A stretch of 64,000 bases of DNA from Dictyostelium discoideum (Eukaryota), in assembly GCA_000004695.1 (NCBI GenBank), contig CM000152.2, positions 4,128,001 to 4,192,000 of the forward strand, written 5' to 3'. The notes below the pieces were generated by a model. The model saw only the letters and a list, made by a program, of their open reading frames with translations. It ran no database searches and was not told the origin of the DNA. The position numbers were made by a program, and so were the translations under genes. Position 1 is the first letter of the stretch. Each line of letters begins with the position of its first letter. Shown here piece after piece: positions 2,966 through 29,231 of the stretch.

Positions 2966-3016
<51 letters not shown>

Positions 3017-3416
3017 ACAACAACAACAACAACACCAAATTCAAATGCAACCAACTCCACCACAACTTCCAATGCCAACTCCACCACAACTTCCAATGCC
3101 AACTCCACCACAACATCAAATGCAACCAACCCCACCATCACCACAACAACCAACTCCACCACAACAACAAGTACCACAATCTCAAATTCCAAGCTCACCA
3201 CAACAACAACAACAACAACAGCAACAACAATATATTATTTCACCACCATCTTATTCACCAACATCGAGCAGTAACCAAATTGGAGGATTTAATCAAATTA
3301 ATAAATCAAATGGGTCAACTAATAGCATAAATTCAAATAACAGCACAATAAATGGTAATAATAACAATAATAGCAATAATAATAACAATAATAACAATAA
3401 TAACAACAATAACAAC

Positions 3417-3447
<31 letters not shown>

Positions 3448-3462
3448 GTAATAACAGTAATA

Positions 3463-3516
<54 letters not shown>

Positions 3517-4265
3517 TGGGAAATAGTATTAGTAATTTGAGTTTGGGTAATTTAACAAGTCAATTAACAAATAGTAATGGTAGTAATAGTAATAATAGCA
3601 CAGATCTTTTAAGTTTGGTTCAACAGCTCTCAAATGGTTCATTGTCAACAACTAATACACAACATTTATTAAATTTAATTCAACAACAACAACAAATCCA
3701 ACTTTTACAACCTCAACAACAAAACCAACAACAAAGTCAACAACAAAATCAACAATCACAACCTATACTACCACAACCTATACTACCACAACAAGTTCAA
3801 AATTTTTCACCACAACATCAATCGATTAGACCCACAAATAATATTTCCAATATAGATTTTACAAACGAACAATTTTACTTGAATAATAACAACAACAATA
3901 ACAATAATAATAGTAATAGTAATAATAATAGTAATAATAATAATAACAATAATAGTAACAATAGTAACAATACTAGTGGTAATAGTATAAATATTCAACC
4001 AACATACAATGTCAAAGAGGAAGGTGGTAGTGAAGAATCAAATAAGAGAATTGAAGATTTCCTTTTAGAACAAGAATTATTTTCCCAATCAAATTCATTA
4101 AGTGCCGCTTTGACTGCCGCTCAAAAACCAGGCCAAGGTTTGGGAATTTCTCAAAATCTTTTGGGTATACAAAATAATCCAGATTTCTTTTTAAATAGTA
4201 CAAATAATATTAACAATACAAACACTAACTCAATGGATACTTATGGTGTCTATGGTAACTTTTAA
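1870..4265 (+). CDS. Heat shock transcription factor (HSF-type DNA-binding domain plus coiled-coil trimerisation region). The tail is long, Q/N/P-rich and low complexity.
   Basis: join(1870..2063,2204..4265). Exon 1 encodes FIKSLIQMLDTPENGHLIRWGKTGESIVITNCAEFETKLLPKYFKTGKFCSFI, and after splicing (donor GTACCT at 2064, acceptor AG at 2202-2203) the text continues RQLNIYGFHKV. This is the HSF DBD signature (..LPKYFKH.N..SFVRQLN.YGF.KV). The heptad-rich LQESHSQLQNAYQSLQHSHQNLLDRVLKL fits an HR-A/B oligomerisation region. Phase-2 junction: AG|A gives Arg. Confidence 0.85.
2079..2150. repeat. (ATT)n microsatellite of about 24 units inside the HSF intron
   Basis: Perfect attattatt... run read directly in the sequence. 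Confidence 0.95.
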
Positions 4266-4769
4266 AAATAATAAACAACAATAATAATAATAAAAAAAAA
4301 AAAAAAAGGAATTCTTTTATTTATTTTTTTTTCTTATTTTTTTCTTTTTTTTTTTTTTTATTTTTTTTCTTTTATTTTTTATCCAAAAGAGGTTTTATTT
4401 TCTATTTTTAAATTATGTTGATTGGATGTCGATTATGGTCATTTTGGCTATTTAAATGTTGTTGAATTGTAAAAATTAAAAAAAAAAAAAAGAATTAATA
4501 AATTAATATTTCTATTTATAAAATGATAATAACTTTGGCAAAAGTGTTTTTGTTTTTTTTACTTTTATAGTTTTTTTAGATTTCAAAGAAAAGATATTTT
4601 TTTTTTTTTTTAAAATTTTTTTTTAATTATTTTTTTTTTTGAATTTTTTTTTTTTAATTATTTTTTTTTTTTCATTCTCCTTTTTTCCTTATCCAATTAT
4701 TTTTTATTTTTTTTTTTCACCATTATTTTATTTTTTTTTCATTGTATTTTATTTTTAAAGTTAAAAAAA

Positions 4770-4804
<35 letters not shown>

Positions 4805-4806
4805 TA

Positions 4807-7800
4807 ATGGATAATATATATCAAAGAATAGAAAATTATCTTATAAAATTATTTCAAACAATATCAGAAACAAATAATAACAATAATAATAATAATACAA
4901 ATAATAATGTTGGAATTAAATTTGAAAATGATTTATTATTAGTTAATGAATTAGGATCAATTATATTAAAAGAATTGGTTCTTGAAGAAGAGATTGGATT
5001 GGTTGCATCATTATTATTTACAGGTGATCATAGTTTATTAAAGTATTTAGAAAAGTCATCAACCATTTCCAATAAAGAGAATGTGAAGATAAAAGTGTCA
5101 ATATTGAATTTAATAGCAGAGTTTATCGAGATATTACAAGTTAGAACTGATGATTATGCAATTGCAATAAAGAATACCTGTGTATTGGTATTCAGAAAGG
5201 ACCAATCCCATTCAGTCCAAGCCGCAGCTTTTGGCCCTATTAAAAAGATATTACATCTAATGTCTCGTGTACTTAAACAGGGTTCAATCGTTGCAGAAAG
5301 TTTTGGAGTGAGTGAGATGACACAACTGTTTTTATTGCAATTCACATGTGGAAAGCTAACTCAAACAGTTCGTGGTGAAATTATAGTTGTGCTTGGTTTA
5401 TTCACTGAATATTTCTCAAGTAATATGTGCGATCGTAATCAGCAATTATCATTCATATTCATGGAGACGCTCGGTGGCCAATTGCGGTCAAAGTCACCCG
5501 AGTCCACTTTAATTCAGTCGTGTTTGAAAGGATTGAATTCGTTATTGGTTCATTTCAGTGGCGATTTCATTGCAAGTGATCCAAAGAATGTTCAATTGAT
5601 ATATCAATATGTTTACATTTGTTTGGATCCTGCATCGTCGACTCAAAGATTCGAAATTCCAAGAGCAGCTATGAAAATCGTTGCGAGACATGCAGTTTTA
5701 TTACGTCAGTATTTGGCAGAACACTCACAACCTTTCTATACACGTATTGAGCATTGGTGTAATCATATCAATAAATTAAATCGTGATATAGCATTCACGG
5801 CAGTCGATTCATTCTTTCAACAAATTTCAAAGGAACTTACAAGTGGTAATCGTAGTTTAGAAGCTGATCAATCAACTTTTAAATTCTTTATTCGTAAATT
5901 CTATTCAATCTTTGAAAATAACAATTCATCACGTTTTGAACTTTCAATTGCAATTAGAGGTTGTGGTAGATTCGCTTCACCTGTTAAATCTTTTATGGGT
6001 GAATGGGAATTAAAATCCTTATTAAATTCTTTATTTAAATTTTCAGAAAAATTAATGGTTGTGTAAGTTGTTTTTTTTTAATTAAATTTAAATTAAATTA
6101 AATTAATAATAATATTTCTAATTTTATTTCTATTTATTTTTCTCAAATAGTAAAATTGAAAATATTGATGAAATTACATTACATTTATCAAGTTTTATAA
6201 ATGCATTCGCATGTATTTTATATGAATTAAATGAATTGGAATTTTGGTATTTAGATCATATTGAACAAGTTTTAGAAACTTATTTTATAATATTTCCACA
6301 TTTATTTGTAAAATCAAGAGATAGATATTTTAAAGCAGTTAATAGATTAATTAGCTCATTATTTTATCATGGTGAATATTTAAAGATATTATTAAGTAGA
6401 TTTGTAAAGAAAGGATTATTAATTACATTTTCAAAACCAAATGATTCAATTAAAAATTTAATTACAACTGCAAATACACCATTTTATCAAGTTTATAAAG
6501 ATCTTTGGTATAATCTTTTAAATCCAACAATTGATACAATTGATAAAGATTTAAATTCAACAATAAAAAAAGAAAATAATAATAATAATAATAATAAAAA
6601 TAAAAATAATAATAATAATCAAACATTAACAAAAGAAGAAATTTCAAAATCAATTAAAAAATTAGTTTATGATGAGATTGTTTCAAGTATTTTATCAATT
6701 ATAAAGAAATTAGATTTACAATACCAAAAGGATGAAAATGATAATAATAGTAATAGTAATAGTAATAATAATAATAATAATGATCAAGATAATAATAAAA
6801 TTTCAATTATTGAATATGAATCAGAAATTAATCAATTAAAACCAGTAACATCAAAAGATATTGAATTATTTTTAGGATTAGTTGAATTTTTTAAATTATT
6901 CATTTCAAAGTATAATACAGAATTATTTGTTCAATGGATTTATATATTTGGTAAAGAAATGATTAGTTTTTCAAAGAAATATCCATTAATTAGTGGTTTT
7001 TATAAATTGGTTCAAATTGTAATGCAAATTTGTAAATCTCAAAAATATTTTAATGAATTACAACAAGATGATAATATAAATTCAGTTATATTTAATAATC
7101 AAATTATTGATGAACAACTACAACAGCAACAAGATATTATGGATATTGATGATACTGATAATAATAGTAATAGTAATAATAAAATCAATAAGAAATTAAC
7201 AAATAGTTTGGAAGAAGATAAAAATAATTGTTTTATATTATTTAAAAAATATATTAAAGAAGTTAGTAATTTTATTAGTCATTATAAAGATGAATTATTA
7301 AGTTCATGTATTGAATTATTATTATCATTACCAAAACAATTGATATCAATACCATTGTTAGTACCAATTGCAAATTTAGCATTCCAATATGGTATTAGTT
7401 ATTTACCATTAGCTCATGTTGGTTTGAATGCTATCGAATATTGGAATTTAGTTGTACCAGATCAGGTTCATAAACATTTAGATCAATTATTACCAAGTTT
7501 AAATGATTATTTAAAGATTTCAACAAATAGTTCAGATTCAACTTCAGGTGGTGATATAGATATTGATAGTGGTGGTAGTATGGGAGGAGGAGGAGTTGTA
7601 CCACCACCATCATCATCATCAAGACATAGAAAAATGAAATTTAAATCAAATAGTTCATTAATTGATCCAAAACAATTACAATTTAAAACATCAATTGAAG
7701 ATTTACAAAATAGAATTATTAGATTATTAGGCCAATTGGGTGGTGATAATGTTCATTTCCTTGGAAAAGTTAGTTTAGTTGGTGAAGAGATCGTTAATGG

Positions 7801-8537
7801 TGTGGCATGGGACACTGAGCCAAAGGTATTAATTAAAATACCATTTGCAGATCAAAATAATATTGATATTTATTTGGACGTAATTTTACCAAATGTTGTA
7901 AATCTTGCAGAGAAATCACCAAATCGTCAAATTAAAGTTGCAGCAGGTGAATTACTTCATTCAGTTTTGTTAATGATGATTGGTAATTCAGCAAATCAAT
8001 CACAGGCTAATCAAATATCGTATAGTAGATTATATAGAAAGATATTCCCATCATTAATTTGTTTATCGACAGATGTTGAACAAGTTACCAAACAATTATT
8101 TCAACCATTAGTTTTTCAAATGATTCATTGGTTCACTCGTAATAAGAAACAAGAGTCTGACGATACAATGAATTTATTGAATGCAATAGTTGATGCTGTT
8201 GGTAACCCATTGGATGGTGCAAGAAGAGATTTCGCAGGTCAATGTCTTTGTGAATTTGCAAAATGGTCTCTTAAAAATACTTCAGTTAAACAACAAGAAA
8301 AGAATGCTTTCAATTTCAAATCAATCTTAAAAAGAATCTATAGTCTTGCACATCATCCTGATCCTTATAAAAGATTAGGTGCTGCAATTTCTTTCAATCA
8401 ATTATATCGTATTTTCCGTGAAGAAGATTCATTAGTTGATCAATTCATTTTTGAAATTTTACATAATATATTTTTTAGTTTAAGAATTGGTGATGATTTA
8501 ACAAATACAAGTAGTAGTAAAAACAATAGTAATAGTA

Positions 8538-10011: not shown

Positions 10012-13000
10012 TACAACCACAACAACAACAAGCACTAATAATAATAATGATAATAATAATGAATTTATTAAAGATATTCATGATATTTTTTATAAAACAT
10101 TATTTACAGAAATTAATAATTATATTTCAAATAATTTTCAATTGTTTTTACCATTGTTGGCAAATAGAATTATTGAAACTAATCAAATTCATAAGGTTTT
10201 AAATGATGTATGTATAATGAAGCAACAACAACAACCAAATCGTGGATTTAAAGATATTATTGAATCAATTGTATTATTCTTAAATTCAATTTCAGAATGG
10301 ACATTAAATTCAAATTTGAAATTAGTTGAAAAAGAAAATATCATTGAATTTACAAAGAACCTTATAAAGATTGATCCAATACAATTCTTTGAAAATAAGC
10401 ATTGTTATGAATTTGTTTATAATATAATAACAAATTATTTATGTCGTTCAAATCCTTTAACATTTAAAAATAAGGTATTGGTATTATTACCTTATTTATT
10501 ATCTTATCCAAAACATAATAATTTTGATTTAGTAAGTACAATTATTTAATTTTTTTTTGTTTCATTTTTAAAATAATTATTTATTTTAATCGTACACTAA
10601 CTTTTAATTTTTTTTTTTTTTTTTTTTTTAAATAAAAATATACCAGATAAAACAAAAATTAAATGAAATTGTTGTTTATGATTTCCCATTAAATTCAAAA
10701 GATTTAACAGTTAAATCACCAATTTATAATGAATATATTACATGTATAGAAAGATTATTAGAGACATTTGAACTTACAAAGAATCCATTAGTAATTGATA
10801 CATTATTACATGTTTTAAAAGAAACTGATCATACACATATTAATTATATTAATTTATCAATTGAAAGATCAATTTTATCAACAAATGATATTGAAGCAAA
10901 AGAAATATTTAGTCATTGTTTTGAGTAAGTTTTTAAACAAACTTTTAATTTTATATTATAATTATTATTTAATTTATTAACTCTTTTTTTTTTTTTTTTT
11001 TTTTTTAATAGATTATTTTTAAATCATTATGATGAATTAAAAATTACATTAATTGATAAATTTTGTGTACCATTAATTAGTCATATGAAAGAGAATATAT
11101 TAGTTCAAATTTTTAGTCAACATTTAAGTTCTTTAATGTCAATTATTCAACCATTGCAACCAAAATATTTATCAGATTCACAAGAAAGAAAATCATCAAT
11201 TATTGAAAAGATTTGTTGTTTCCATTTAATTGAAGCATTATATCAATCATTACCATCAGCAATTATAAAGGAGAAAATTAATCCATTCTTTTATGATAAA
11301 CCAGATGGTAAAGGTACAGAGTTGACAGCAGCCATTATGAAAGCAGCCCATTCTGCAAAATCAGAGAAATTAACATCCGATGATAAATATGTTACAAGAT
11401 CATTATGTACTAAGTATCATGGTGCTGCTTTTAGTGCATTGGCAAGTGTTATAGTTTCAACTCAAACTAAAGAAAACTTTTTCCATGTTTTCTTCTTTAA
11501 AGAGAATAAAGATAAAAATGAATACCTTTGGGAGAACATTATCGATACTGATCAAGTTTTTAACTTTCAACCAGAGACTAATTTCCTTGTTTCCTACAGT
11601 ACCCCTCAATCATTATTTGCAAATGATTTAAGATATCTTTCAAGTCAATATTTAGTTGATAGTAGTTTAAGTCAAGATTTTATTGCTAAAAACTTTTTAG
11701 AAGGTGATAATAATTCAACAACAAATAATAATAATGGTGATGATGGTATTATAATGCAAGGTCAGTCGCAAAGTGGTGATAATGAAAATCAAATATCAAA
11801 TGATATAGAAATTGATCAAGTTAATTCAAATCCATCAATGATTGCAATGTTAAAAATTATTGATTTCTATCAAAAGAAATTTGTAGTCACACCACCATCT
11901 TCAATATTATTTGGACAACAATCACAACAACCAAAACCAACAGTTGGAGATATGCCAAAATGGATGTTTGAAATTTATCAAAAACTTCAACAAGGTGTTC
12001 ATCCAAATATTGTAATTTTTATGATAAAAATCATTATCAATAGACCACAATACTTTGAAAGATTTCATGAACTTTGGATACCAATTCTAATGGATTATGT
12101 AGTTTCAGAGGGTAATGGTGGTAATGGATTACATTACTTTGTACGTGATGTTTGTTTTATTTTATTGAAATGGCCAAATATTTATAAATCTCAAGATGGT
12201 GGTGGCGGCACTACATTAGAAAAACATCTTTCAAAGTTTGTAAATCATTTAATGAAGAATACCTATTGTACCGATAGAAGAATTTTAAAGAGTAATTTAA
12301 ATATTGTGAAATCATTTGTTGAAAGGTGGAAATCACTTTTCAAAGTTGATAAATCAATCATTTTAGAGTTATTATCAACAAAAGGTGATTTCAAGAGTAA
12401 AAGTAGACAAATTAAAACAACTGGTTTAGTATTATTATCAATTTTATTAAGTAATGGTTATCCTGCATATGATAAAGAATATGATTCAAATACCATTAGT
12501 GAATTTAAATTTTATCAAGTTTTATTAGATCATTTACAAGATTTTAAAGAACTTTATGATGCTGCATCTGAAGTTTGTGGTATGATTTTATTATATCTTT
12601 CAAAGCAACAACAATCACAACAACAACAACAACAATCAATATTCCCACAATTATTAAAAGATAAAATTAATTCAATATTAAATAATAATGAAAATCAAAG
12701 AGCATTTAGTTGTCTTTATTTTATTGGTTTACATTATCCATTATTTTTACAAGGATTTTATGGTAAAATATTTAATTTATTACCACAAATTTCAAATGAA
12801 ACTAGATTGATTGCATTAAATATCATTCATTGGTGTGTTGAAGATATTCAAGATCTTTATACGAAATTGAAATCAAATAATATTGAAAATTTAATTAGAA
12901 TTAGAGAAGGTGAGATTCAAGTGGTAATCTTAAGAATTCTTTATAAATTGGTTCAAAAAAGAGATACTACTTTTGGTACTGTAAATCAAATTCTATCATT

Positions 13001-16000
13001 ATTACTCTCGAATAATTGGTTCACTTCAAATGTTACTAATGAATATAGTCGTTCGCTATATTATGATATAATCATTTATATCTATAATAACTTTATTGAA
13101 TATCAAGATCAATCAAATGAAAATAGTAAAGATTTAGTATTATCATTATTGATTGGGTTATCAGACGAAAGTGATTCAATCAATAAGAAACTTTTACAAT
13201 TTTGGGATAATAATAGTAAAACTTTATCAGCATCGAGTAATCAAAGATTACAACAATTCTTTGATATTATGTATTCACCAGAGACTGAATCGAAATGGGT
13301 TGCAAATAGTTGTTGTCTCTTATTCCAATTATGTAATAGATCAAGTGATTTCACTAAATTACTTTTCGATAAACCATTAAGTGAATGTACATTCAAAGAG
13401 GTACAAGTCGATTCTTCTTGGCAACATAGAACTTTAAATATGAATCCATTATTTAGTTCTTCTCAATATGGTATTGATGATGCTACTACCGATGAATCAA
13501 ATGGTGATTCTATGCAATTGGATGAAATTAGAGCAACTCAAGCTCCAAATTTTACATTAACTCAAACTGCATTTAGTGAATTTTATCCATCATCTTCACA
13601 ATCTTATGGTGGAACTAATAATAATACAGGTAGTAGTCAATTATCATCATCATCATCATCAAGTGGTAGTCAAAGTAGTAGTCAAAATAATTCATCTTCA
13701 AAAAGAAAACAAAAAATTACAAATGATCCAAAATTAATTAATAATTCTGAATTAAGAAGAAGATTTAAAAAGATTGATGATCGTGGTGCAGATGAAAGAA
13801 TTGTAAAATTTGCAAGATTACAAGTTAAAAGAAATATTGAAAGAGAAGCATACTTTGAAAAGAGTAAACAAGCACGTGAAAATCAAATTACAATGATTAG
13901 GAAGTATAGAGTTGGTGAATTACCTGATATTCAAATTAAATTACAAGATATTATTAAACCATTACAATTATTATGTCAACGTGATTCAACTATTGGTGTT
14001 AATGTATTCTCGTCATTGTTTACTGCTTTATATAAAAATACACCAAAAGAAAGTATTAGAACATTCCAATGTAATATTAAGAAATTAATTGATTCAATTG
14101 TTGAAAGATGTAAATTTAATTCAACCCTTGTCTCATCGATATTGAATATCTCTGAAAAGAATTTAGAATTTTCACCTGAATTTTCAAAGATTAAAGATAT
14201 CTCTTTAAATTCAAATAATCATCCAATGGCAATCATACTTTGTGAGAAATTAATATTATCATTACAAAATACAACTAAAGCATCAACAACTAATCAAGCA
14301 CAAAAGTTACAACAACAACAGCAATTGAATCAAGGTTGGGATAGTTTAAGAGAATTATATAAATCATTGAAAGAGGATGATATTATCATGGGTTTAATTG
14401 AAAAACAAATGGGTGGTGATATACCATATACTAAAAAAGCATTGGAATTTGAATTAAAAGGTGATTGGGTTAATGTTTTAAAGGTATATGATGAAGCAAC
14501 TTCTAAATTAGAGAGTGGTGAATTGAATCAGTATCAAGGTAATCTCTCAGAGAGTGAAACTGCGTTATGGGAGAATGGTCGTTTAGAATGTTTTACAAAA
14601 CTTTGTAATTGGTCAGCATTAAAAGATAATTTCAATAGTTATTATCCAAACCCAAATCAAATATTTAAAGAAAAGAATTGTGATTTACTTTTAAGCTATT
14701 TCTTTGAATTCAATTTAAAGGTTAAAGAGAATTGGAATTATTTATATCAATTCATTGCTGATTTGGCAAATACTAAACAATATCAATATTTAGAGAATAA
14801 ATTCCCTGGTGAACTTGCATTCTTGGAGGTAACAAGATCCGATCATAATAAAGCTTCCTATTATGTTTCAAAGTTTTATCAAGCCTTTAAACATCAATGG
14901 TCATCATCTCATCCATTAGCAATTGAATCACGTCATAGAATCTTACAACCACTTCAAAAGATTGTAGAGGTTGAAGAATTTTTAAATTTAACTTCAACTC
15001 CAATCATTAATACTTTAAAATTGGATACCCTATTAACTCAATGGAAGAGTAGATTCCCAACTAAATTAGATGATATCATGGTTTGGGATGATTTAATCTT
15101 TTATCGTTCAGTTTTATTAGAAAAGATTTATGAAAGATTCTCAAGTTTTACCTCTGATAAAAGTTCCGATGAAAAGGTTAAATCAACTTTAATTCAAGAA
15201 AGAGCTATACTCTATCATAAAATGTCAAAAGGTGCACGTAAATTAGGTAATATTGTTGTATCAGAGATTTATTTCCGTCAAGCAGTTAAATCATACCCAA
15301 AAACAAAGGATAATGATTTAGCTTTCCCTTTGGTAACTTCATTGATTGATATCTATTGTACAAAAGCTAGAAATTCACCATCACCAATTGAAACTTTAGA
15401 TAGATTTGTAAAGGCTTTGAAATTTATTGAATCAAAAAAAGATGAAGAATCAATTATAAATTCAAATGAAAATCTTCAAAAATATTTAATGATGCATGGT
15501 GATATCTTTTGGGATATTTATCAATTAGATAAGAAATTAGGTTCAACATTAGTAATTGATTCTTTTAAAAAGAATTCTTTACCAATTAATTTAACTTCAA
15601 TTCCAATTAATTCATTAAAAGATGAATTATTTAATTCAACTTTTAAATGTTATAGTGAATCAATTAAATTACATCAAAAATCAACAAATTTATTAAATAC
15701 AACATCATCATCACCTTCTTTAAGTATTTCTTCTTCTTCTTCTCCTTATTCCTCTACTTCTTCCTCTTCACAACCAAAATTATCAAATGAAATTTTAATT
15801 GAAAAAACAAAGACAAAGAGTGCTCATTTGAAATTTGCAAACTTTTGTGATAATATATTAAAGGATAAAATTTCTCAACAAACAACACCAACACAATTTA
15901 ATGAAGAAGTTATTGATTTAGCAACATCAGTTATAGTTTCAACATTAGAGGCAATTAAAGAAGAGATACCAGGTTCAGTTGATAAATTCCCAAGATTATT

Positions 16001-17996
16001 AGAAATTTTAACACAATTTGAACAATACTCTGTGATTGCACGTGAATTTAAATCTAGAGTATCAACAATACCATGTTGGATGTTTATTAGATGGATTAGT
16101 CAAATGTTCCCATATTTAGATTTACCACAAGGTCCTTTGATTTTACCAATACTCTTGGAGATTGCAAAATGGTATCCACAAGCAATTTATTTCCCTTTCA
16201 AAATTAGTAGTGAACAATTTGGACCATTGGCAAAGAAAATATCAGCACCATTGGAAAAGGAATTAATTAATCCACTATTGGATACTTTAGTTATTGAATT
16301 CCAACGTTTAACTCATCCAGAACATCGTTTCAAAGATTATATGGAAGAGATGAAATCATTAATTAAAGCAACTCCAAAAGATTTAAATGCAATTGCAAAA
16401 TTAAATAATGAAATCTATGATGACTCTTTTAATCCATCAACAGTTTCAGGTGATTATAATTTAAAATTTGCCAAAGAACATGAAGCTTCCTATTTATCAA
16501 ATTTTGGTAAAGATTCAACTAAATTAGCACGTATGGATCAAAAGAAATTCTTGGAGATTTTTGCTGAAATGTCTGGTAATATGAATAAAAATATGAAACC
16601 AAATTCAACTGCCTCTATGAAATTAAAGGATTTCAGTGGTTGGTTAGCTGATTTCGATCGTTCAAACTATCAAACTTCACATCAAATGGAAATACCTGGA
16701 CAATATGATGGAATTGGTAAACCACAACCAGAAACTCATGTAACCATCTCATCATTCGATACCAATGTTTTGGTGATGGGTTCATTACGTAAACCAAAAC
16801 GTGTAAAGATACATGGTAATGATGAACTAGATTATCCTTTCTTAATTAAAGGTGGTGAAGATCTACGTTTAGATCAAAGAATTCAACAATTGTTTGGAAT
16901 TATGAATGAAATTTTAAAACGTGATACAGCATGCAATAAACGGTCACTCAATGTTACAACCTATCAAGTTGTACCAATGACAAGTAAAGTTGGTATCATT
17001 GAATGGTTAAATGACACTAAACCACTTAGAGAGATATTGGAGGAACAATTAGCACATCAATTAAAAACACCTCGTTCAAATGTTTCAATATCAAAATTGG
17101 AATCAACAAAATATCATAATGATTGGATAAACTCTTTTGCAAAATATTTGAAACCAAATTCACCAGTGGGTCCATTATATCAACAAATGTTTATTCATGC
17201 CACTCGTGATGATTGTGCAAAGAAATTGGAGAAACAACACTCTAAAGTTCCTGAAAATCTTTTACAAAATGGTATTTGGTCACTTTCATCATCTCCAGAG
17301 AGTTATCTTTTCATTAGAAATTCATTTGCACGTTCATTGGCATCATTCTCTGTTTGTTCCTATGTCATTGGAATTGGTGATCGTCATTTGGAGAACTTTT
17401 TAATCTCTCAAAGAGATGGTCGTTTAATTGGTATTGATTTTGGTCATGCTTTTGGTACTGCAACTCAATTCCTTCCAATTCCAGAGTTAATGCCTTTCCG
17501 TTTAACTCGTCAATTCACTAGTTTCCTAAGACCATTGGATTCAGTTGGTTTACTCAATCACAATATGACCTATACTTTAACGGCATTACAAAATCAAAAA
17601 GAAATCCTCTTAACAACTATGGATGTTTTCGTTAAAGAACCACTTTTAGATTGGAGCAAACTTGCTACTCGTTTAGTAAAAGAACAAGGAAAACATCCAA
17701 AAGATACTAAAAATGTTTGGTTCCCAAAACAAAAGATTCAAATTGCAAAGAAGAAATTAGAATTGGTCAATCCTGCCTATATAACTTTAGAAGAGTTATC
17801 AGGCTCGGTTCATTCTGGTCTCCCATATGAAAAAGCTCTCTCTGAAATTATTAAAGGTGATCCAAAACATAATATTAGAGCAAAAGTTAATAAAGTATGT
17901 TCTTCTGTTAAAGAGCAAATAGATTGTTTAATAGATCAATCAACTGATCCAAATATCCTTTCAAGAGCTTGGGTCGGTTGGAATGGTGCTTTATAG
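4807..17996 (+). CDS. dnapkcs: DNA-dependent protein kinase catalytic subunit (DNA-PKcs), a PIKK-family kinase, complete at 4299 codons
   Basis: join(4807..6062,6151..10531,10647..10924,11012..17996). The splice sites are GT|GTAAGT at 6063, acceptor AG at 6149-6150, TTA|GTAAGT at 10532, acceptor taccAG ending at 10646, GA|GTAAGT at 10925 and aatAG ending at 11011. All phases close and the spliced length is 12900 nt, that is 4299 aa plus stop. The C-terminal PI3K/PIKK catalytic motifs are present (GIGDRHLENFLI, DFGHAFG) and a FATC-like tail ends ...AWVGWNGAL. The huge HEAT/FAT-like N-terminal region matches DNA-PKcs architecture. Confidence 0.9.
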
Positions 17997-19504: not shown

Positions 19505-20552
19505 TTAATTATCTTCAGTTTCTTGTTCGAGATCAGTTTCTTTAATGAAAGCATCTAATTCTGCTGCAGTAAAAATATGATAAACAACATTGTCACCTTG
19601 TTTAGTGAAATAAGAGAATTCTAATTTTTCACTGTTGATATTTGAACGATCCATAGTTTTTGTTAAAACTTTGAGAGCCAATTGAAGGGCTTCTTTTAAT
19701 GAAATATCTGGTTTATAATTTGATCTTAAAACTGATTGTGCAACCTAAAAATAAAAAGAAAAATAAATAAAAATAAAAAATAATAATAATAATATATTAA
19801 TATTAATGTTATGACATATATATTAATATTATTTATAATTTTAAAATTCTTATAATTAAGAATAAGAATAATTTTTACATACTTGACTATTTTCACCACC
19901 AATTGAGGTAGCTTTCCAACCAGCAAAATTACCAGAAGGATCAGATTGATATAATTGGAAACCATAATGACGATCCCAACCAGCATAAAGGAATGAGACA
20001 CCAAATGGACGTAAACCACCATATTGAGTGTAACCTTGTTTTGTATCACAAATTTGAGAGACCAATTGTTCGACTGGCATTGGTTCTTGATATTGATAAA
20101 AGAAACGTTGTGATGATAATCTTGCATAATTGATTAAAATGTTGGCATCGGATGTGATACCAGCGACTGCACAAACAACATGTTCATCAATCTTAAACAT
20201 CTTTTCAGAGATTGATGTTGATGAATCTAAAAGTTTTGCTGTGGTCTTTTTCTCTGCTGCTAAAACAATACCATCTTTTGCTAAAATACCAACTGTTGCA
20301 CCTGCATGTCTAATTGCTGTCATTGCATATTCTACTTGATAAACACGACCTTCTGGTGAAAAAATTGTTGTTCTTTGATCATATCTTCTTGCCTATTTTT
20401 TATAAATATATTTAAAAAATTTTTATTTAAATTTTAATTAATAAATTAAAAATTTTTTTTTTTTTTTTTTTTTTTTAATAATTATCATAATAACAATTAA
20501 TATTAATAATAATAATAATAATAGTAATAATAATAATAATAATTCATACCAT
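19505..20552 (-). CDS. psmA4: Proteasome subunit alpha type-4 (PSMA4 / alpha-3), about 250 aa
   Basis: join(complement(19505..19744,19883..20392,20550..20552)). Exon 1 is just ATG, followed by donor GTATGA. Exon 2 begins [36 protein letters not shown]... (compare human [28 protein letters not shown]) and ends ...GGENSQ|GTATGT. Exon 3 reads [32 protein letters not shown]... and ends at TAA. Confidence 0.85.
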
Positions 20553-21239: not shown

Positions 21240-21274
<35 letters not shown>

Positions 21275-22246
21275 CATTACAGCAGCAAAATGAATAGTAA
21301 AAACTAAAGGTAAAAAACAAAAAGAAGTCATAATAGTTTTCATCATTGGACTAGTATCATCAGTCATTGAGAAACGAACGGAACCATATTGGAAAATTGA
21401 AGATACTAATGGTAAAATATAATATGGATCGGCCATAGAGAGATTCTTAAACCAAAGGGCACCAGCATCAACGAGTAGATTTGTATCACCACTTAATTGA
21501 CGTAAGAAAATGAATGGATAAATGATGAATGGCATTTGAAGCATGTTTAAACCAAGTGTTTTCATTGGTGAGGTGTCATGTTTTGCAAATGATTTTTTTT
21601 GGAGTTCTGCAATTTTGATTCTACCCTCTTGAGTACCATCATTGAGGTAGGAGTGTTTCTCCATATCCTGTTTAACCAATCTCATTTTAGCAGCATCTCT
21701 TTGATTTCTAATTGCTAATGGTAATGTTAAAACACGAATTGCAATTGCTGTACCAACGAAAATGCTAACCCATGGTAACCCATATTGTACATGAAGTTCA
21801 TTAAGTTTTGCAATTAAGTCGAAATTAAATTGATGTGACCATTCTGTAATTGTGAATGCGTCTGGTCCCATTGTTGGTTTTAAAATATAACTTGGTAAAA
21901 CTTTATTACTAATTGTATCAGTTATAACCTCTGTTGTTGTTGTTGATGCTGATGATGATGATGCTGTTGATGAGAAATCACTAATTGGTGTATTTATATC
22001 AGTATCAACATTATTATTATTATTACTATTATTATTATTATTTTCAGTTGAGAAGAATCTTTTATTAAAATTTTTAATATTATTTTCTAAGAAATTTGAT
22101 TTTGAAAAAGTTGGTAAAATTTTTGATGTTGATGATAATGATTGTGATGATGAAAATAATATTGGTGATACAGTAGTTGTTGAAAAACTTTTTATAAATA
22201 ATTTTTTATTCATTCCATTTATTGGAACTCTTTTTAAAGCATTAAT

Positions 22247-22249
<3 letters not shown>
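20918..22249 (-). CDS. oxaA: Oxa1/YidC-family mitochondrial inner-membrane insertase
   Basis: join(complement(20918..21205,21281..22249)). The N-terminus is presequence-like and Ser/Asn-rich (MINALKRVPINGMNKKLFIKSFSTT...). The conserved Oxa1 core is LPWVSIFVGTAIAIRVLTLPLAIRNQRDAAKMRLVKQDM...YILPLVSSIFQYG. ORFs 21269..22249 and 20918..21175 join through one intron. The exact donor is ambiguous by 6 nt: GCT|GTAATG or ..AT|GTATTA, both in frame. Confidence 0.75.
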
Positions 22250-22282
<33 letters not shown>

Positions 22283-22757
22283 GCAATGAATAATTGATTA
22301 AATGTTGAAAAAAAAAAAAATATAAAAATTAAAAAAAAAAAAAAAAATTTTAAAAAACAAAAAATATAATATAAAAAAAAAAAAAAAAAAATAAAATAAA
22401 AAAAAAAAAAAAGAAAAAAAAAAAAAAAAATTAAAAAAATATCTTTTAAATTTTGATAAAATGAAACAAAACTTATATAAATTATATTGTATTAATTAGT
22501 TATTAAACCCATTTATTTAAGAAGAAAAGATTAAAAAAAAAAAAAAAAAAAAAAGAAAAAAAATGGAAAAATAAAAAAAATAAATAAAAAAATATAGATA
22601 TCTATATTATGGAGAAGAGAAAAAGGGAGTGTTTAAATAAAAAAGAGTTGGGATATTTTTTTTCACGGTTACATTTCAGAAAACATGTTTTTTTGGTAAA
22701 AGGTAATATTTTTCACAAAACCACCTAAAAAATCTTTTTAAAATATCTTTATTCTTT

Positions 22758-22788
<31 letters not shown>

Positions 22789-22852
22789 ATTTAAAAAACA
22801 AAACATTCTAAAAATCTTTTTTTTTCTTTTTTATTTTATTTTTTTTTTTTTT

Positions 22853-22911
<59 letters not shown>

Positions 22912-22915
22912 TTAT
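22853..22915. repeat. (ATTT)n microsatellite of about 16 units
   Basis: tttatttattt... run read directly, immediately 5' of the glycoside hydrolase gene. Confidence 0.95.
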
Positions 22916-22931
22916 TATTAAAATTGAACAA

Positions 22932-24746
22932 ATGAAATCATTTATTTTATTATTATTTTCATTTTGTTTGGTTTTTGGGTCTCCACTTATTGACTCACCT
23001 TCAAAACAAATCATTTGGTCAGATTTGTAAATGTTTAAAATTTATTCCATAATTATTAAAAATTATTATTTTTATTAACTTTTTTTTTTTTTTTTTTTTT
23101 ATTTTTTTTTTTTTATTTAAGTTTTGGAATTAATTTTCAAAATGAATTTTTTAATGTGACAGTTGCTCAAAGTCAAATTTTAGCAATTAAAGAATTAGGA
23201 ATTGAATGGGTTCGTGCAAGTTTTCATTGGGCATATTTAGAAAGTACTGAAGGCAATTTAAGATTTGATTTATATGATCCAGTTATGAATTTAATTAAAA
23301 GTAATGGCTTGAAATCAATTGTCTATCTCGTTGGTACACCAGATTGGTGTAGTAGTTATGATCCTTCAACAGCTGGTAATGTTTCAAAAAGTGATACTTT
23401 CCCACCTTCAAACAATACAAGATTCGCTGAAACAATGATTATTTTAAGTAATCGTTATTCATTTGTTGATGTATGTATTTTATTTTTTATTTTTCAAAAA
23501 TTACAATACTCAGGGGGGTGAATAATTAAATACTAATCTTTTTTTTTTTTTTTATTTTTTATTTTTTTTTTTAAAGTTTTGGGAAGTTTGGAATGAACAA
23601 AATTTAATACCAGCATTTTTTGCACCAGTTTATTCATTTCAAAAATATAATGAAATTTTTCAAGAAACTAAAAGATTATTTTCAAATGATGGTAAAGCAT
23701 CGAAATTGGCAGTTGGTGGATTGGGATATTATGGTTTTTCAAGTACTGGTGAGAATATGATTGCAGATTTAATGACAACTAAAACTTTTGAAGGTGTAAT
23801 AGCAGGTTATCATCCATATACTGATTTACCAGAGGGTGGTAATGGTCAATTGCCCGCGAGTCCATATGCACATTATGCAACAGCAAGATACCTTAATTCT
23901 ATATTATCAAGCCAAGGAAAAGCATATCAAATTTGGTCTACCGAATATGGGTGGTCAAGTAGTGGTGAAGGTAATGTCTCAAAACCAGTTCAAGCCGAAT
24001 TCGGTATAAAACGATTACTAATTGACAGTTTAGTAAATTTTGATAAATCATTCATTTTCACAACTAGTGATCTTGATGGTAACGCATCGTCAGTGAGAGA
24101 TCAAGGATATGGGTTTGTTGATTTAATGTTAAAAAAGAAACCAATTTTCAATTCATTTTTTAATTTATTCACTATAACAGGACCAAAAGTTGATGAAATC
24201 AGTTCAGAAGAAATTAATAGTTATATTACAATATCAAGTTTGGGTGATGATTTTGTTGGTATATTTTATAAAAAATTGTCAACTAATACAACATTGTTTG
24301 TATTTTGGTCACCATCTCAAACTGTAAAATCCTTAACTTTAAATCTTTTCAATGTATCTGCAAATTTATATCAAGTCTCTGATAATACTACTCAATTTTA
24401 TTCAGCAACAATAAATTCAAATACAATTTCATTAACAATAACTGAAAATGTTCAAATTTTTGAATGGCCAATAAAGAAATCTTCATCATCAACATCATCA
24501 TCAACATCTACAACCTTTTCATCATCAACATCTTCATCATCGACAACTACAACCTCTTCATCAACAACTACAACCTCTTCATCGACAACTACAACCTCTT
24601 CATCAACAACTACAACTTCAACCACAACATCAAATTCAACACCAAACCCAGAAAATAGTAATAGTGATGATATGTCATTATCATTTAAATTATATTTAAA
24701 TATTAAATTGATAATCATATCTTTATTATCTTTATTTTTATTTTAG
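22932..24746 (+). CDS. Secreted clan GH-A glycoside hydrolase (GH5/GH39-like) with a Ser/Thr-rich linker and a C-terminal hydrophobic tail (probable GPI anchor)
   Basis: join(22932..23026,23122..23470,23577..24746). The signal peptide is MKSFILLLFSFCLVFGSP. Across the second intron the text reads ...RYSFVD|FWEVWNEQN, the acid/base NE(P/Q) motif of clan GH-A. The nucleophile motif is QIWSTEYGW. An S/T-rich block (SSSTTTTSSSTTTT...) is followed by ...LNIKLIIISLLSLFLF*. Splice sites are TT|GTAAAT, tttaAG, GAT|GTATGT and ttaaAG, with phases closed. Confidence 0.75.
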
Positions 24747-25222
24747 AATAAATTTTTTTTTTTTTTTTTATTTCTTTTTTTTTACTCAAAATTTAGTGGT
24801 TTGTGATTTTATATATTGTTTTTTTTTTTTTTTTTTTTTTTTAATTGGATATTTAAGGTTGGTGATTAATATTGATATTAAAAAAAAATGGAGAAATAAA
24901 AAATTGTACAAAATAATTACATTAATTTTTTTTTATATTCTCATATCATTTTGTGTATTTGTTAGTGATCTATTTATCTATAGAATTAAAAAATTTTTAT
25001 TTATTTTTAATATTTTTTTTCAAGTAAAAATTTGAATGTTTTTTGCAGTGCTCATCAATATTATTTTTTTTTTATTTTTTTTTTATTTTTTTTTTTTTAA
25101 ATTTTTTTTTTTTTAATTTAAATTTTGAGAACATCACAAAAATTTTTTAATTTTTTTTTTTTTTTTTTTTTTTTTTCATTAATTAAATTTATCCACACAC
25201 ACATAATATATATACACCAAAA

Positions 25223-27821: not shown

Positions 27822-28463
27822 ATGTTCCCATCGGATGCCCTTAAAATAATAGATTGCCCTAATGGGTTAAATTGTATGCGAATTATTTGTTGGTTTAAGC
27901 ATACTGAAAATAATATCAATAATAATAATACTTTTGATAATAATTATAATATAATCAATAATAATAATAATAATAATAATTTTAATAATAATTATAATAA
28001 TAATTATAATAATAATAATAATTATAATAATAATTTTAATAATTTTAATAATAATAATTTTAATAATAATAATAATTTTAATAATAATAATAATAATTTT
28101 ATAAACAACAATAATAATTTTAATAATAATAATAATAATTTTATAAATAACAACAACACTAATAATAGCAATAATTTCAATAACAATAGTTTTAATAATT
28201 ATAATAATAATTTTAATAATAATAATAATAATAATAATTTTAATAATAATTATAATAATTATAATAATAATTTTAATAATAGCCCTAATAATCCAAATAA
28301 CACCAACAACAATAACAATCAAAATGCATTGGGCGCAAATTTGAGAATTGGTAGAAATAGAATTAGTGTTGATAAAGATCCAAGATTAAATAAAAATGTT
28401 AGAAATGGTTATGGTTTAGGAACAAATGTAAATAATAGTAGTGGTAGTGGAAATAGCAACATC

Positions 28464-28503
<40 letters not shown>

Positions 28504-28670
28504 AACAAAATAATAGTAATCCCACAAATAAATTTAATGTAGAAATAAAAAAAGGTAGTTCATCAAATGAAGATACTACAACTGCAAATGAATATAACCC
28601 ATCCGATGAAGATCCTATAGATTTGGATCATTTACCTACATTACAAAAGGATACTTCACAACACATTCCG

Positions 28671-28703
<33 letters not shown>

Positions 28704-29231
28704 CAATCACATCATAGTGGTTCACATACACCACTTAAAAAGAGATTTTCAATTGACCAAGCTCCTACCCCTTCTCATCATCCATCAGATGCCAATCCTA
28801 ATAAATTAAAATCAACAACATCAGCACTTTATAAAAAACAAAAAGATAAAAGAGAAAGAGAAGATAAAGAAAAAGAAGAAGCACATGAATCAGAAGAACA
28901 TTCAGAAGAAGATGATCATGCTAAAACAACAACTACAACCACTACAACAACCACAACAGCAACAGCAGCAACAACAACAAAAGGAAAGAAGCAAAAGGTA
29001 GAGATTGAACAAAATCCAAATGAAGCTCAAAAATTGAAAACATCAATTTGGAATCCAACTTTAAAAAATGTATTATCAAAACCACCAAATAAAGAAATGT
29101 TGGATTTAATTACAAAGGATGATGTATTCGATCAAACTAAATGGATTTCTCTAGGTGTTGATACTTCACTCTTACCTTCAATCGTGGTTGAATCAAGAAC
29201 AAAAGTACCAAAATCTGTTAGACAAATGTAA
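27822..29231 (+). CDS. CCCH-type zinc-finger protein with a very long Asn-rich low-complexity region
   Basis: Single 469-codon ORF. The N-terminus MFPSDALKIIDCPNGLNCMRIICWFKH gives C-x5-C-x4-C-x3-H spacing. It is followed by about 150 aa of N/F/Y repeats, an acidic/Ser-rich segment and a conserved-looking tail ...KTSIWNPTLKNVLSKPPNKEMLDLITKDDVFDQTKWISLG.... Confidence 0.55.

Follow-up and report, generated by a model that had tools for sequence, protein, structure and literature searches.

A probable PslG-type glycoside hydrolase of family GH39, likely of bacterial origin, encoded in the genome of Dictyostelium discoideum

How does an amoeba that preys on bacteria come to encode an enzyme whose closest characterized relative cuts a bacterial exopolysaccharide, and what would the amoeba do with it? 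This question is raised by DDB_G0281313 (Q54UB6), a gene of Dictyostelium discoideum AX4 located at positions 22932-24746 (forward strand) of the window studied here, namely the whole stretch of 64,000 nucleotides (nt) that was analysed (GenBank assembly GCA_000004695.1, contig CM000152.2, positions 4,128,001 to 4,192,000). A first-pass annotation, made from the letters of this DNA alone, had described the product as a secreted, probably glycosylphosphatidylinositol (GPI)-anchored hydrolase of clan GH-A, called it "GH5/GH39-like", and proposed its horizontal acquisition. Full-text literature searches brought up no paper mentioning DDB_G0281313 or Q54UB6, and none in which PslG or GH39 is connected in a relevant way with Dictyostelium. 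As the overall explanation, we favour, with moderate confidence, a PslG-type enzyme of bacterial origin that plays its role at the cell surface on bacterial exopolysaccharide; the components of this explanation differ in firmness and are taken up one by one.

The family assignment is the firmest component. When the protein was compared with all PDB sequences by phmmer, PslG from Pseudomonas aeruginosa (4zn2 and 5bx9) was hit with an expect value (E) of 3e-49 over residues 25-354, and all matches other than PslG were at E > 0.005. The identity between the two proteins is 33-36% over about 335 residues (33% over 341 amino acids by BLASTP). A structure was also predicted with AlphaFold from nine homologues (mean predicted local distance difference test score (pLDDT), 77.7; predicted template modelling score, 0.84) and used as a query in Foldseek. 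The PDB search gave 779 matches at E <= 0.001, and the 50 listed were without exception enzymes of GH-A families (GH39, GH30, GH79, GH35, and GH5). PslG structures occupied the top three places (E 2e-36 to 6e-36; template modelling (TM) scores, 0.81-0.89), and the alignment to PslG extended over 435-440 columns, covering both barrel and beta-sandwich, with the TM score of 0.88-0.89 when normalised to PslG; other GH39 and GH30 enzymes came next at E of about 1e-15 and TM of about 0.6. The protein thus resembles PslG (PA2237; GH39; PDB 4zn2, 5bx9, and 9g17) in its (beta/alpha)8 barrel plus C-terminal beta-sandwich and in the acid/base and nucleophile glutamates placed after strands 4 and 7. In the model, DSSP assigns the barrel strands to residues 33-38, 61-67, 96-102, 149-153, 192-197, 223-226, 266-269, and 305-309, and E155 directly follows strand 4 (149-153) while E271 directly follows strand 7 (266-269), which is the arrangement on which the first-pass annotation had staked its call of a clan GH-A TIM-barrel hydrolase. 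Also, the motifs YHPYT..PEG and SDLDxRAS.RDxxYG of the PslG branch are present.

Profile libraries gave a much vaguer picture. The sole Pfam match of the protein was a weak one to the GH42 N-terminal model (22.3 bits); the Pfam GH39 model (PF01229) did not match at E <= 1, and nothing was found in a scan against NCBIfam. PslG itself, when searched against Pfam, scored 25.1 bits for GH39, for which the cut-off is 26, together with weak matches to GH5 and GH42. The inconsistent labels of "GH5" and "GH42 N-terminal" attached to the dictyostelid proteins are therefore explained by PslG itself falling below the GH39 threshold of Pfam. CAZy families are defined by sequence, and with family, fold, and activity type taken jointly, we are highly confident that the DDB_G0281313 product is a clan GH-A enzyme belonging to the PslG branch of GH39, by which the earlier label "GH5/GH39-like" is sharpened. 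Classical GH39 enzymes (XynB, PDB 1px8, 1w91, and 4ekj; a Bacteroides enzyme, 5jvk) have in common with it the GH-A barrel, the retaining mechanism, an accessory beta-sandwich, and the CAZy family, but they were hit by Foldseek only at E of about 1e-12 to 1e-15 and TM of about 0.6 with a root-mean-square deviation (rmsd) of 6-7 A and 12-15% identity, and they are exo-acting enzymes with pocket active sites, unlike a PslG-type endo enzyme.

The catalytic residues can be assigned by comparison with PslG, whose residue roles and ligand contacts we took from a recent study (PMC11912335). PslG is classified in CAZy GH39 as a retaining endoglycosidase, with E165 as the acid/base and E276 as the nucleophile that was trapped covalently by a cyclophellitol probe, and this 2025 study with activity-based probes showed that its activity is that of an endo-beta-glucanase on the pentasaccharide repeat of Psl (PMC11912335). 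The PslG contacts H81, D133, N164, E165, E276, F319, R331, and D332 all recur unchanged in D. discoideum, where they correspond to H67, D123, N154, E155, E271, F309, R322, and D323, respectively, and also in eight of eight orthologues. The acid/base motif reads NEQ rather than NEP, and the earlier annotation had considered this noteworthy; the motif is real, but its significance as a functional oddity is to be rejected, given that the third position varies freely across the family. Q occupies it in the group-4 dictyostelids, in Synstelium, and in one probably bacterial metagenomic homologue (P0021); other dictyostelids have M, the Naegleria-related protein has V, most bacterial homologues have P, and many of the distant ones have E. 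Another difference from PslG is an extra Ser in the RAS-S-VRD loop, which the eight catalytic-type dictyostelid orthologues have in common.

The gene model on which these comparisons depend was confirmed. Joining the three exons (Table 1) leaves an uninterrupted frame of 1614 nt encoding 537 amino acids, as had been predicted. Both introns are of the GT..AG type with a guanine-plus-cytosine (GC) content of 6% and 15%, and the exons have 26-30% GC in a window that is strongly AT-rich, with coding islands of about 25-33% GC. The two catalytic signatures had been thought to be split across exons; VDFWEVWNEQN does straddle the junction of exons 2 and 3, but QIWSTEYGW lies wholly within exon 3. The corresponding protein from another D. 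discoideum assembly (KAM9950061.1) is also 537 residues long, was matched at 100% identity over the query, and differs at one residue, in the Ser/Thr tract; the window protein falls in the same 90% cluster as XP_640860.1/Q54UB6, and its Phe in the Ser/Thr tract is common to the AX4 sequence, by which the window is identified as the AX4 reference. The AX4 reference model of DDB_G0281313 is, however, 575 residues long: it treats 24674-24746 as an intron of 73 nt, thereby loses both the stop codon and the hydrophobic tail that precedes it, and continues into poly-T intergenic DNA. We consider the 537-residue model to be better, because every orthologue keeps the unspliced tail (...SLSFKL... followed by hydrophobic residues); KAM9950061.1 also ends in the same way at 537 residues, and the 575-residue C-terminus was accordingly rejected. 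The poly-T tracts following the stop codon (24750-24845), which the AX4 model wrongly translates, are typical of Dictyostelium intergenic DNA.

Both ends of the protein carry what appear to be eukaryotic targeting signals. By hand-applied rules, the N-terminus MKSFILLLFSFCLVFG has one basic residue and a hydrophobic core of 13 residues with the mean hydropathy of 2.8, and the likely signal-peptidase site is preceded by V-F-G (V at -3 and G at -1); most dictyostelid homologues have N-terminal signal peptides. PslG has an N-terminal membrane anchor, whereas the DDB_G0281313 product would instead have a signal peptide of the cleavable type. Behind the beta-sandwich, a Ser/Thr-rich stalk follows, which is probably O-glycosylated. 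The tandem repeat in this stalk had been described as a 27-nt unit encoding SSSTTTTS four times; the repeat is there, but its unit is 21 nt and encodes SSSTTTT four times, and Tandem Repeats Finder delimits it at 24490-24616 with a period of 21 nt and 6.2 copies. The C-terminal tail is composed of S-L-S (candidate omega to omega+2 positions), a spacer of eight residues (FKLYLNIK), and a hydrophobic segment of 12 residues, LIIISLLSLFLF, which has the mean Kyte-Doolittle value of 3.0 and ends at the stop codon with no cytoplasmic residues, in line with the hydrophobic C-terminus first noted. Hydrophobic C-terminal tails were found in all ten of the ten dictyostelid homologues, with a Ser/Thr tract preceding the tail in most of them, and S-L-S-F about 20 residues from the end is common to the group-4 dictyostelid species. 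A globular domain followed by an O-glycosylated Ser/Thr stalk and a GPI signal is the layout of classical surface glycoproteins of Dictyostelium such as csA and PsA. Secretion and probable GPI anchoring, as first suggested, are consistent with these features and with the retention of the tail in every orthologue, and we regard a GPI anchor as fairly probable. PslG also differs in having neither introns nor the added Ser/Thr stalk nor the GPI-signal-like tail, and DDB_G0281313 lies outside any exopolysaccharide operon.

In the course of this comparison, we noticed that the Cavenderia fasciculata orthologue, DFA_09419 (positions 3001-5087 of locus L083), is annotated with an N-terminus (MHSC...) that comes from a first exon of only three residues and an intron of about 590 nt, and this start appears to be mistaken. 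If translation is begun at an in-frame ATG situated a short distance before the main exon, the gene has no intron and the protein acquires an ordinary signal peptide, MKILLLLLFYILLV; the absence of a signal peptide from the annotated C. fasciculata protein is therefore due only to a mis-modelled start.

Where, then, did the gene come from? When 1.84 billion representative proteins were scanned exhaustively with HMMER, only 18 fell below 1e-30; among these, the species-labelled ones are all dictyostelid, and the rest look bacterial except for a second dictyostelid paralogue. The dictyostelid holders are D. cf. discoideum, Dictyostelium firmibasis, Dictyostelium purpureum, Polysphondylium violaceum, C. 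fasciculata, and Synstelium polycarpum, and orthologues are present in at least seven dictyostelid assemblies. Just beyond 1e-30 were two clusters that carry the label "PslG" in their sources, namely P0030 and the cluster of P0024 from Deinococcus roseus. When one genome per prokaryotic species was scanned, the best relatives were found in Pseudomonas species, with about 30% identity over residues 24-445, and a word-indexed homologue search with a profile of 21 sequences, which reached saturation at 8000 candidates, yielded nothing new. Furthermore, the closest bacterial homologue (P0008) is encoded in the gene order of Poly_export, a 658-residue protein, GT4, the hydrolase, and GT4, which is the pslD-E-F-G-H order of a psl-type operon. 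In neighbour-joining (NJ) trees based on Kimura-corrected distances with 200-300 bootstraps, all the dictyostelid sequences form one clade with 100% bootstrap inside the PslG-like family, and this family is separated from outgroup hydrolases with 100% bootstrap as well.

In D. purpureum, both introns are found at exactly the same positions and in the same phases as in D. discoideum (intron 2 as FVD/YWEIWNE, with the slash marking the intron), while no intron occurs anywhere in this region of the P. violaceum and C. fasciculata genes; this pattern fits an intronless ancestor of the bacterial type and a gain of introns in group 4. Taken together, the distribution, the fully supported clade, the psl-type operon context, and the intron pattern indicate a single ancient transfer from a bacterium to the stem of Dictyostelia before their radiation. 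The gene is integrated in its host, with spliceosomal introns, host-like GC content, eukaryotic neighbours, orthologues in several genomes, and RNA-seq counts; a recent transfer was thus rejected in view of the introns and their shared positions, the host-like composition, and the orthologues across dictyostelids. A bacterial origin of DDB_G0281313, as the first reading had proposed, accordingly appears to us quite likely, with the qualification that the acquisition was ancient and not recent. The D. discoideum genome paper is said to list ThyX, IucA/IucC, and beta-lactamase-like genes as candidates for transfer from bacteria, and DDB_G0281313 is reportedly not among them; the pattern common to those genes and this one is a bacterial-type protein, restricted among eukaryotes to dictyostelids, with host composition and introns. 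DDB_G0281313 adds a new eukaryotic member to an enzyme family that is well known, and it does not represent a new kind of system.

What the enzyme does in the amoeba can be proposed with less assurance. By its homology with PslG, the product would be a retaining endo-beta-glycosidase operating by double displacement, where E271 would be the nucleophile toward the anomeric carbon, with E155 as the general acid/base, in a -1 subsite built from the PslG-equivalent residues N154, F309, R322, and D323. In the donor bacterium, the gene would have supplied the hydrolase of a psl-type exopolysaccharide operon; upon its one entry into the ancestor of Dictyostelia, eukaryotic targeting signals would have been gained, and the two introns would have followed in group 4. 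The enzyme may then reside at the exterior side of the plasma membrane and would consequently also be present in the lumen of the phagosome, and it may cut beta-linked bacterial exopolysaccharides of the glucose/mannose type such as a Psl-like matrix or capsule, so that the amoeba could detach, ingest, or digest prey embedded in a matrix. Pseudomonas naturally co-occur with D. discoideum, and biofilm and exopolysaccharide protect them from predation (bioRxiv 10.1101/2024.08.09.607352). Bacterial exopolysaccharide is a tentative choice as the substrate, to which we would give somewhat less than an even chance.

Published expression data bear on this choice. The DDB_G0281313 transcript is present at a moderate level in vegetative cells (log counts per million, 4.8; supplement of PMC7078664). 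In the Rosengarten time courses, as judged by list membership in the supplement of PMC4403905, DDB_G0281313 is found in a single sheet, that of the genes down-regulated in suspension. The timing, read from the column position and thus uncertain, would be within a few hours of the onset of starvation, and no developmental up-regulated list of that supplement contains the gene. Such growth-phase expression favours a role in feeding over one in building a late developmental matrix.

Several observations nonetheless weigh against the proposed role and its premises. Expression is not induced by bacteria; the transcript is slightly lower in cells grown on Klebsiella than in axenic cells (log fold change, -0.67; PMC7078664). 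At the -3 to -5 subsites, where PslG has the distal residues D83, R84, and Q134, the D. discoideum protein has A69, Y70, and T124 instead, and these positions are variable among the probably bacterial homologues too. Specificity for Psl itself is therefore doubtful; judging from the aligned residues, the chemistry and the -1 subsite are conserved with respect to PslG, but the extended specificity probably is not. The assignment of the substrate is, moreover, purely inferred. The AlphaFold model was built from nine sequences and has loops with pLDDT < 50, including residues 275-280 and 312-324 near the active site. Internal support in the NJ trees is weak, with only 25% bootstrap for the grouping of the dictyostelids with the Pseudomonas-type core, and the tree therefore does not fix the sister group or the donor lineage. 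Finally, the GPI call was made by hand-applied rules, and the hydrophobic C-terminus could instead serve as a transmembrane anchor, or the protein might simply be secreted.

Among the alternatives, the one that we take most seriously, although we think it unlikely on balance, is that the same enzyme trims or remodels a polysaccharide of the amoeba itself, such as the heteropolysaccharide of the slime sheath, stalk, or spore/cyst wall, or beta-glucan. This would mirror the bacterial situation, in which PslG is active on the polymer of its own producer and the family members belong to operons for exopolysaccharide biosynthesis. The gene is conserved in all the sampled Dictyostelia, which are all known as builders of a polysaccharide matrix, and the layout of a stalk and a GPI-like tail is generally typical of developmental glycoproteins such as csA and PsA; the lack of induction by bacteria would also suit such a role, and a neighbouring gene in C. 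fasciculata (2450-2824 of locus L083) encodes a CBM49 cellulose-binding module. The expression described above points the other way, however, since the gene is expressed in growing cells, is absent from every developmental up-regulated list, and figures only among the genes whose expression declines early in starvation in suspension. Also, no genes for exopolysaccharide glycosyltransferases were found near DDB_G0281313 within the window.

An exo-glycosidase of a generic, nutritional kind (beta-xylosidase, beta-galactosidase, or cellulase-like), for which the resemblance to PslG would carry no functional meaning, might be suspected from the weak GH42 match, from the names of GH5 or GH42 given to orthologues in their sources, and from the exo-beta-xylosidases among the other members of GH39. 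PslG gives the same weak and mixed picture in Pfam, though, and the automatic names reflect poor coverage by the models; PslG is far closer to the protein (E 3e-49; TM 0.81-0.89) than are GH42 enzymes or GH39 xylosidases, the latter being found at E of about 1e-14 and TM of about 0.6 with an rmsd above 6 A, and both motifs of the PslG branch are in place. We hence regard such an exo-glycosidase as improbable. Still more improbable would be a surface protein that binds carbohydrate but does not catalyse, as a pseudoenzyme or lectin would: the second dictyostelid paralogue taken up below has lost the acid/base pair yet keeps its signal peptide and hydrophobic tail, but both glutamates and every residue of the -1 subsite are intact in DDB_G0281313 and in eight of eight orthologues, throughout the dictyostelid radiation. 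As for bacterial contamination or an artefact of assembly or annotation, nothing beyond the bacterial affinity of the protein speaks for it, and it is hardly credible for a gene with AT-rich GT..AG introns, exons of 26-30% GC, eukaryotic genes on both sides, orthologues in at least seven dictyostelid assemblies, intron positions common to D. purpureum, and published RNA-seq counts.

If the favoured explanation of a surface-acting PslG-type enzyme is correct, its main interest would lie in a testable link between predator and prey. To our knowledge, PslG is among the most studied anti-biofilm enzymes and has so far been treated as a bacterial protein. A conserved and, as far as its residues tell, apparently active eukaryotic enzyme of the PslG type in the main laboratory model of amoeba-bacteria predation opens a direct route to asking how predators handle a biofilm matrix. 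The dictyostelid family might also serve as a source of PslG-type enzymes that are putatively glycosylated by nature, predicted to be displayed at the surface, and altered in their distal subsites. In evolutionary terms, it offers the case of an old transfer followed by the addition of introns and targeting signals, a duplication into a likely pseudoenzyme, and a possible parallel in Naegleria. For annotation, the AX4 model needs to be corrected at the C-terminus, where it hides the putative anchor signal, and the automatic names of GH5 and GH42 are misleading.

The duplication concerns the second, divergent dictyostelid paralogue, represented by P0013 (D. cf. discoideum KAM9982814.1) and P0015 (D. 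purpureum XP_003292246.1). In these proteins, N-E is changed to D-K and the equivalents of R331, H81, and D133 of PslG are lost, as is the nucleophile in D. purpureum, while the signal peptide and the hydrophobic C-terminal tail are kept. From these substitutions, the paralogue is probably a pseudoenzyme or lectin, and its loss of catalytic residues means that the family can evolve binding-only members.

The only other eukaryotic homologues that we found are XP_044567135.1 of Naegleria fowleri (P0164) and a relative of 547 residues (P0036), with 41% identity between the two. Although they are members of the PslG-like family, they have no more than 28% identity with the D. discoideum protein, and they are placed elsewhere in the tree than Dictyostelia, grouping with other metagenomic sequences. 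Both end in a hydrophobic tail, which in P0036 is also preceded by a Ser/Thr/Pro-rich stretch. One eukaryotic acquisition shared by Dictyostelia and the Naegleria-like clade was rejected (1% bootstrap); since the Naegleria-like proteins do not group with Dictyostelia, a separate acquisition is suggested, and the sequences hint at a second, independent capture by the Naegleria lineage with convergent architecture. Speculatively, and with a rather low probability in our estimate, bacterivorous amoebae might have repeatedly captured a bacterial matrix-cutting enzyme, in Dictyostelia and in the Naegleria lineage, and put it on their surface, in both cases with a Ser/Thr stalk and a GPI-like tail; DDB_G0281313 would then be an anti-biofilm enzyme with which Psl-like exopolysaccharide is stripped from Pseudomonas-type prey, and the dead paralogue a receptor or lectin for exopolysaccharide.

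The features of the locus are collected in Table 1 together with neighbouring genes, none of which is tied to polysaccharide metabolism. A tblastn search of the window revealed no paralogue or tandem copy of DDB_G0281313. Directly upstream of the start codon, there are a (TTTA)n microsatellite (about 22856-22915) and long poly-T runs (22740-22925), which are likewise typical of intergenic DNA in Dictyostelium.

Table 1. Features of DDB_G0281313 and neighbouring genes, in positions of the window
Feature	Position	Strand	Remarks
Exon 1, residues 1-31 plus 2 nt	22932-23026	+	Start codon; signal-peptide-like N-terminus MKSFILLLFSFCLVFG/SP
Intron 1	23027-23121	+	95 nt, GTAAAT..TAAG, 6% GC, phase 2, after W-S-D/E
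Exon 2, residues 32-148	23122-23470	+	Barrel strands 1-3; H67 and D123 (H81 and D133 of PslG)
Intron 2	23471-23576	+	106 nt, GTATGT..AAAG, phase 0, between D148 and F149
Exon 3, residues 149-537	23577-24746	+	Includes TAG stop at 24744-24746
Catalytic (beta/alpha)8 barrel, residues ~25-351	23004-24185	+	From phmmer and DSSP; span includes both introns
N154-E155	23592-23597	+	E155 (codon 23595-23597) predicted general acid/base; N164-E165 of PslG
E271	23943-23945	+	Predicted catalytic nucleophile (E276 of PslG), from alignment and model
C-terminal beta-sandwich, residues ~352-447	24186-24473	+	As in PslG; eight strands at 375-446 in the model
Ser/Thr-rich mucin-like stalk, residues 450-505	24480-24647	+	93% Ser/Thr
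Four near-exact tandem 21-nt units	24534-24617	+	TCTTCATC(A/G)ACAACTACAAC(C/T); encode SSSTTTT x4, residues 468-495
GPI-attachment-signal-like C-terminal segment	24672-24743	+	MSLSFKLYLNIKLIIISLLSLFLF
PIKK-family kinase	11085-17996	+	Neighbouring gene; very large, FATC domain, DNA-PKcs-like
Proteasome subunit exon	19856-20323	-	Neighbouring gene
Oxa1/60KD_IMP-type insertase	21269-22249	-	Neighbouring gene
Asn-rich low-complexity protein	27822-29231	+	Neighbouring gene; without Pfam match

Some database entries met among the PslG-like proteins deserve a remark. P0069 (351 residues) shows systematic changes of Ala to Val, Arg to Cys, and the like along its whole length; it looks like the translation of C-to-T converted, bisulfite-type reads and hence like a database artefact with no real variant behind it. 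In P0017 (653 residues), P. aeruginosa PslG continues without a frame break into a downstream portion resembling pslH, the following gene of the operon, and this fusion is probably an artefact of assembly or a frameshift. In P0016 (641 residues), the PslG-like domain lies behind an N-terminal extension of about 220 residues that is full of N-x-S/T sequons, and the host of this protein could be archaeal.

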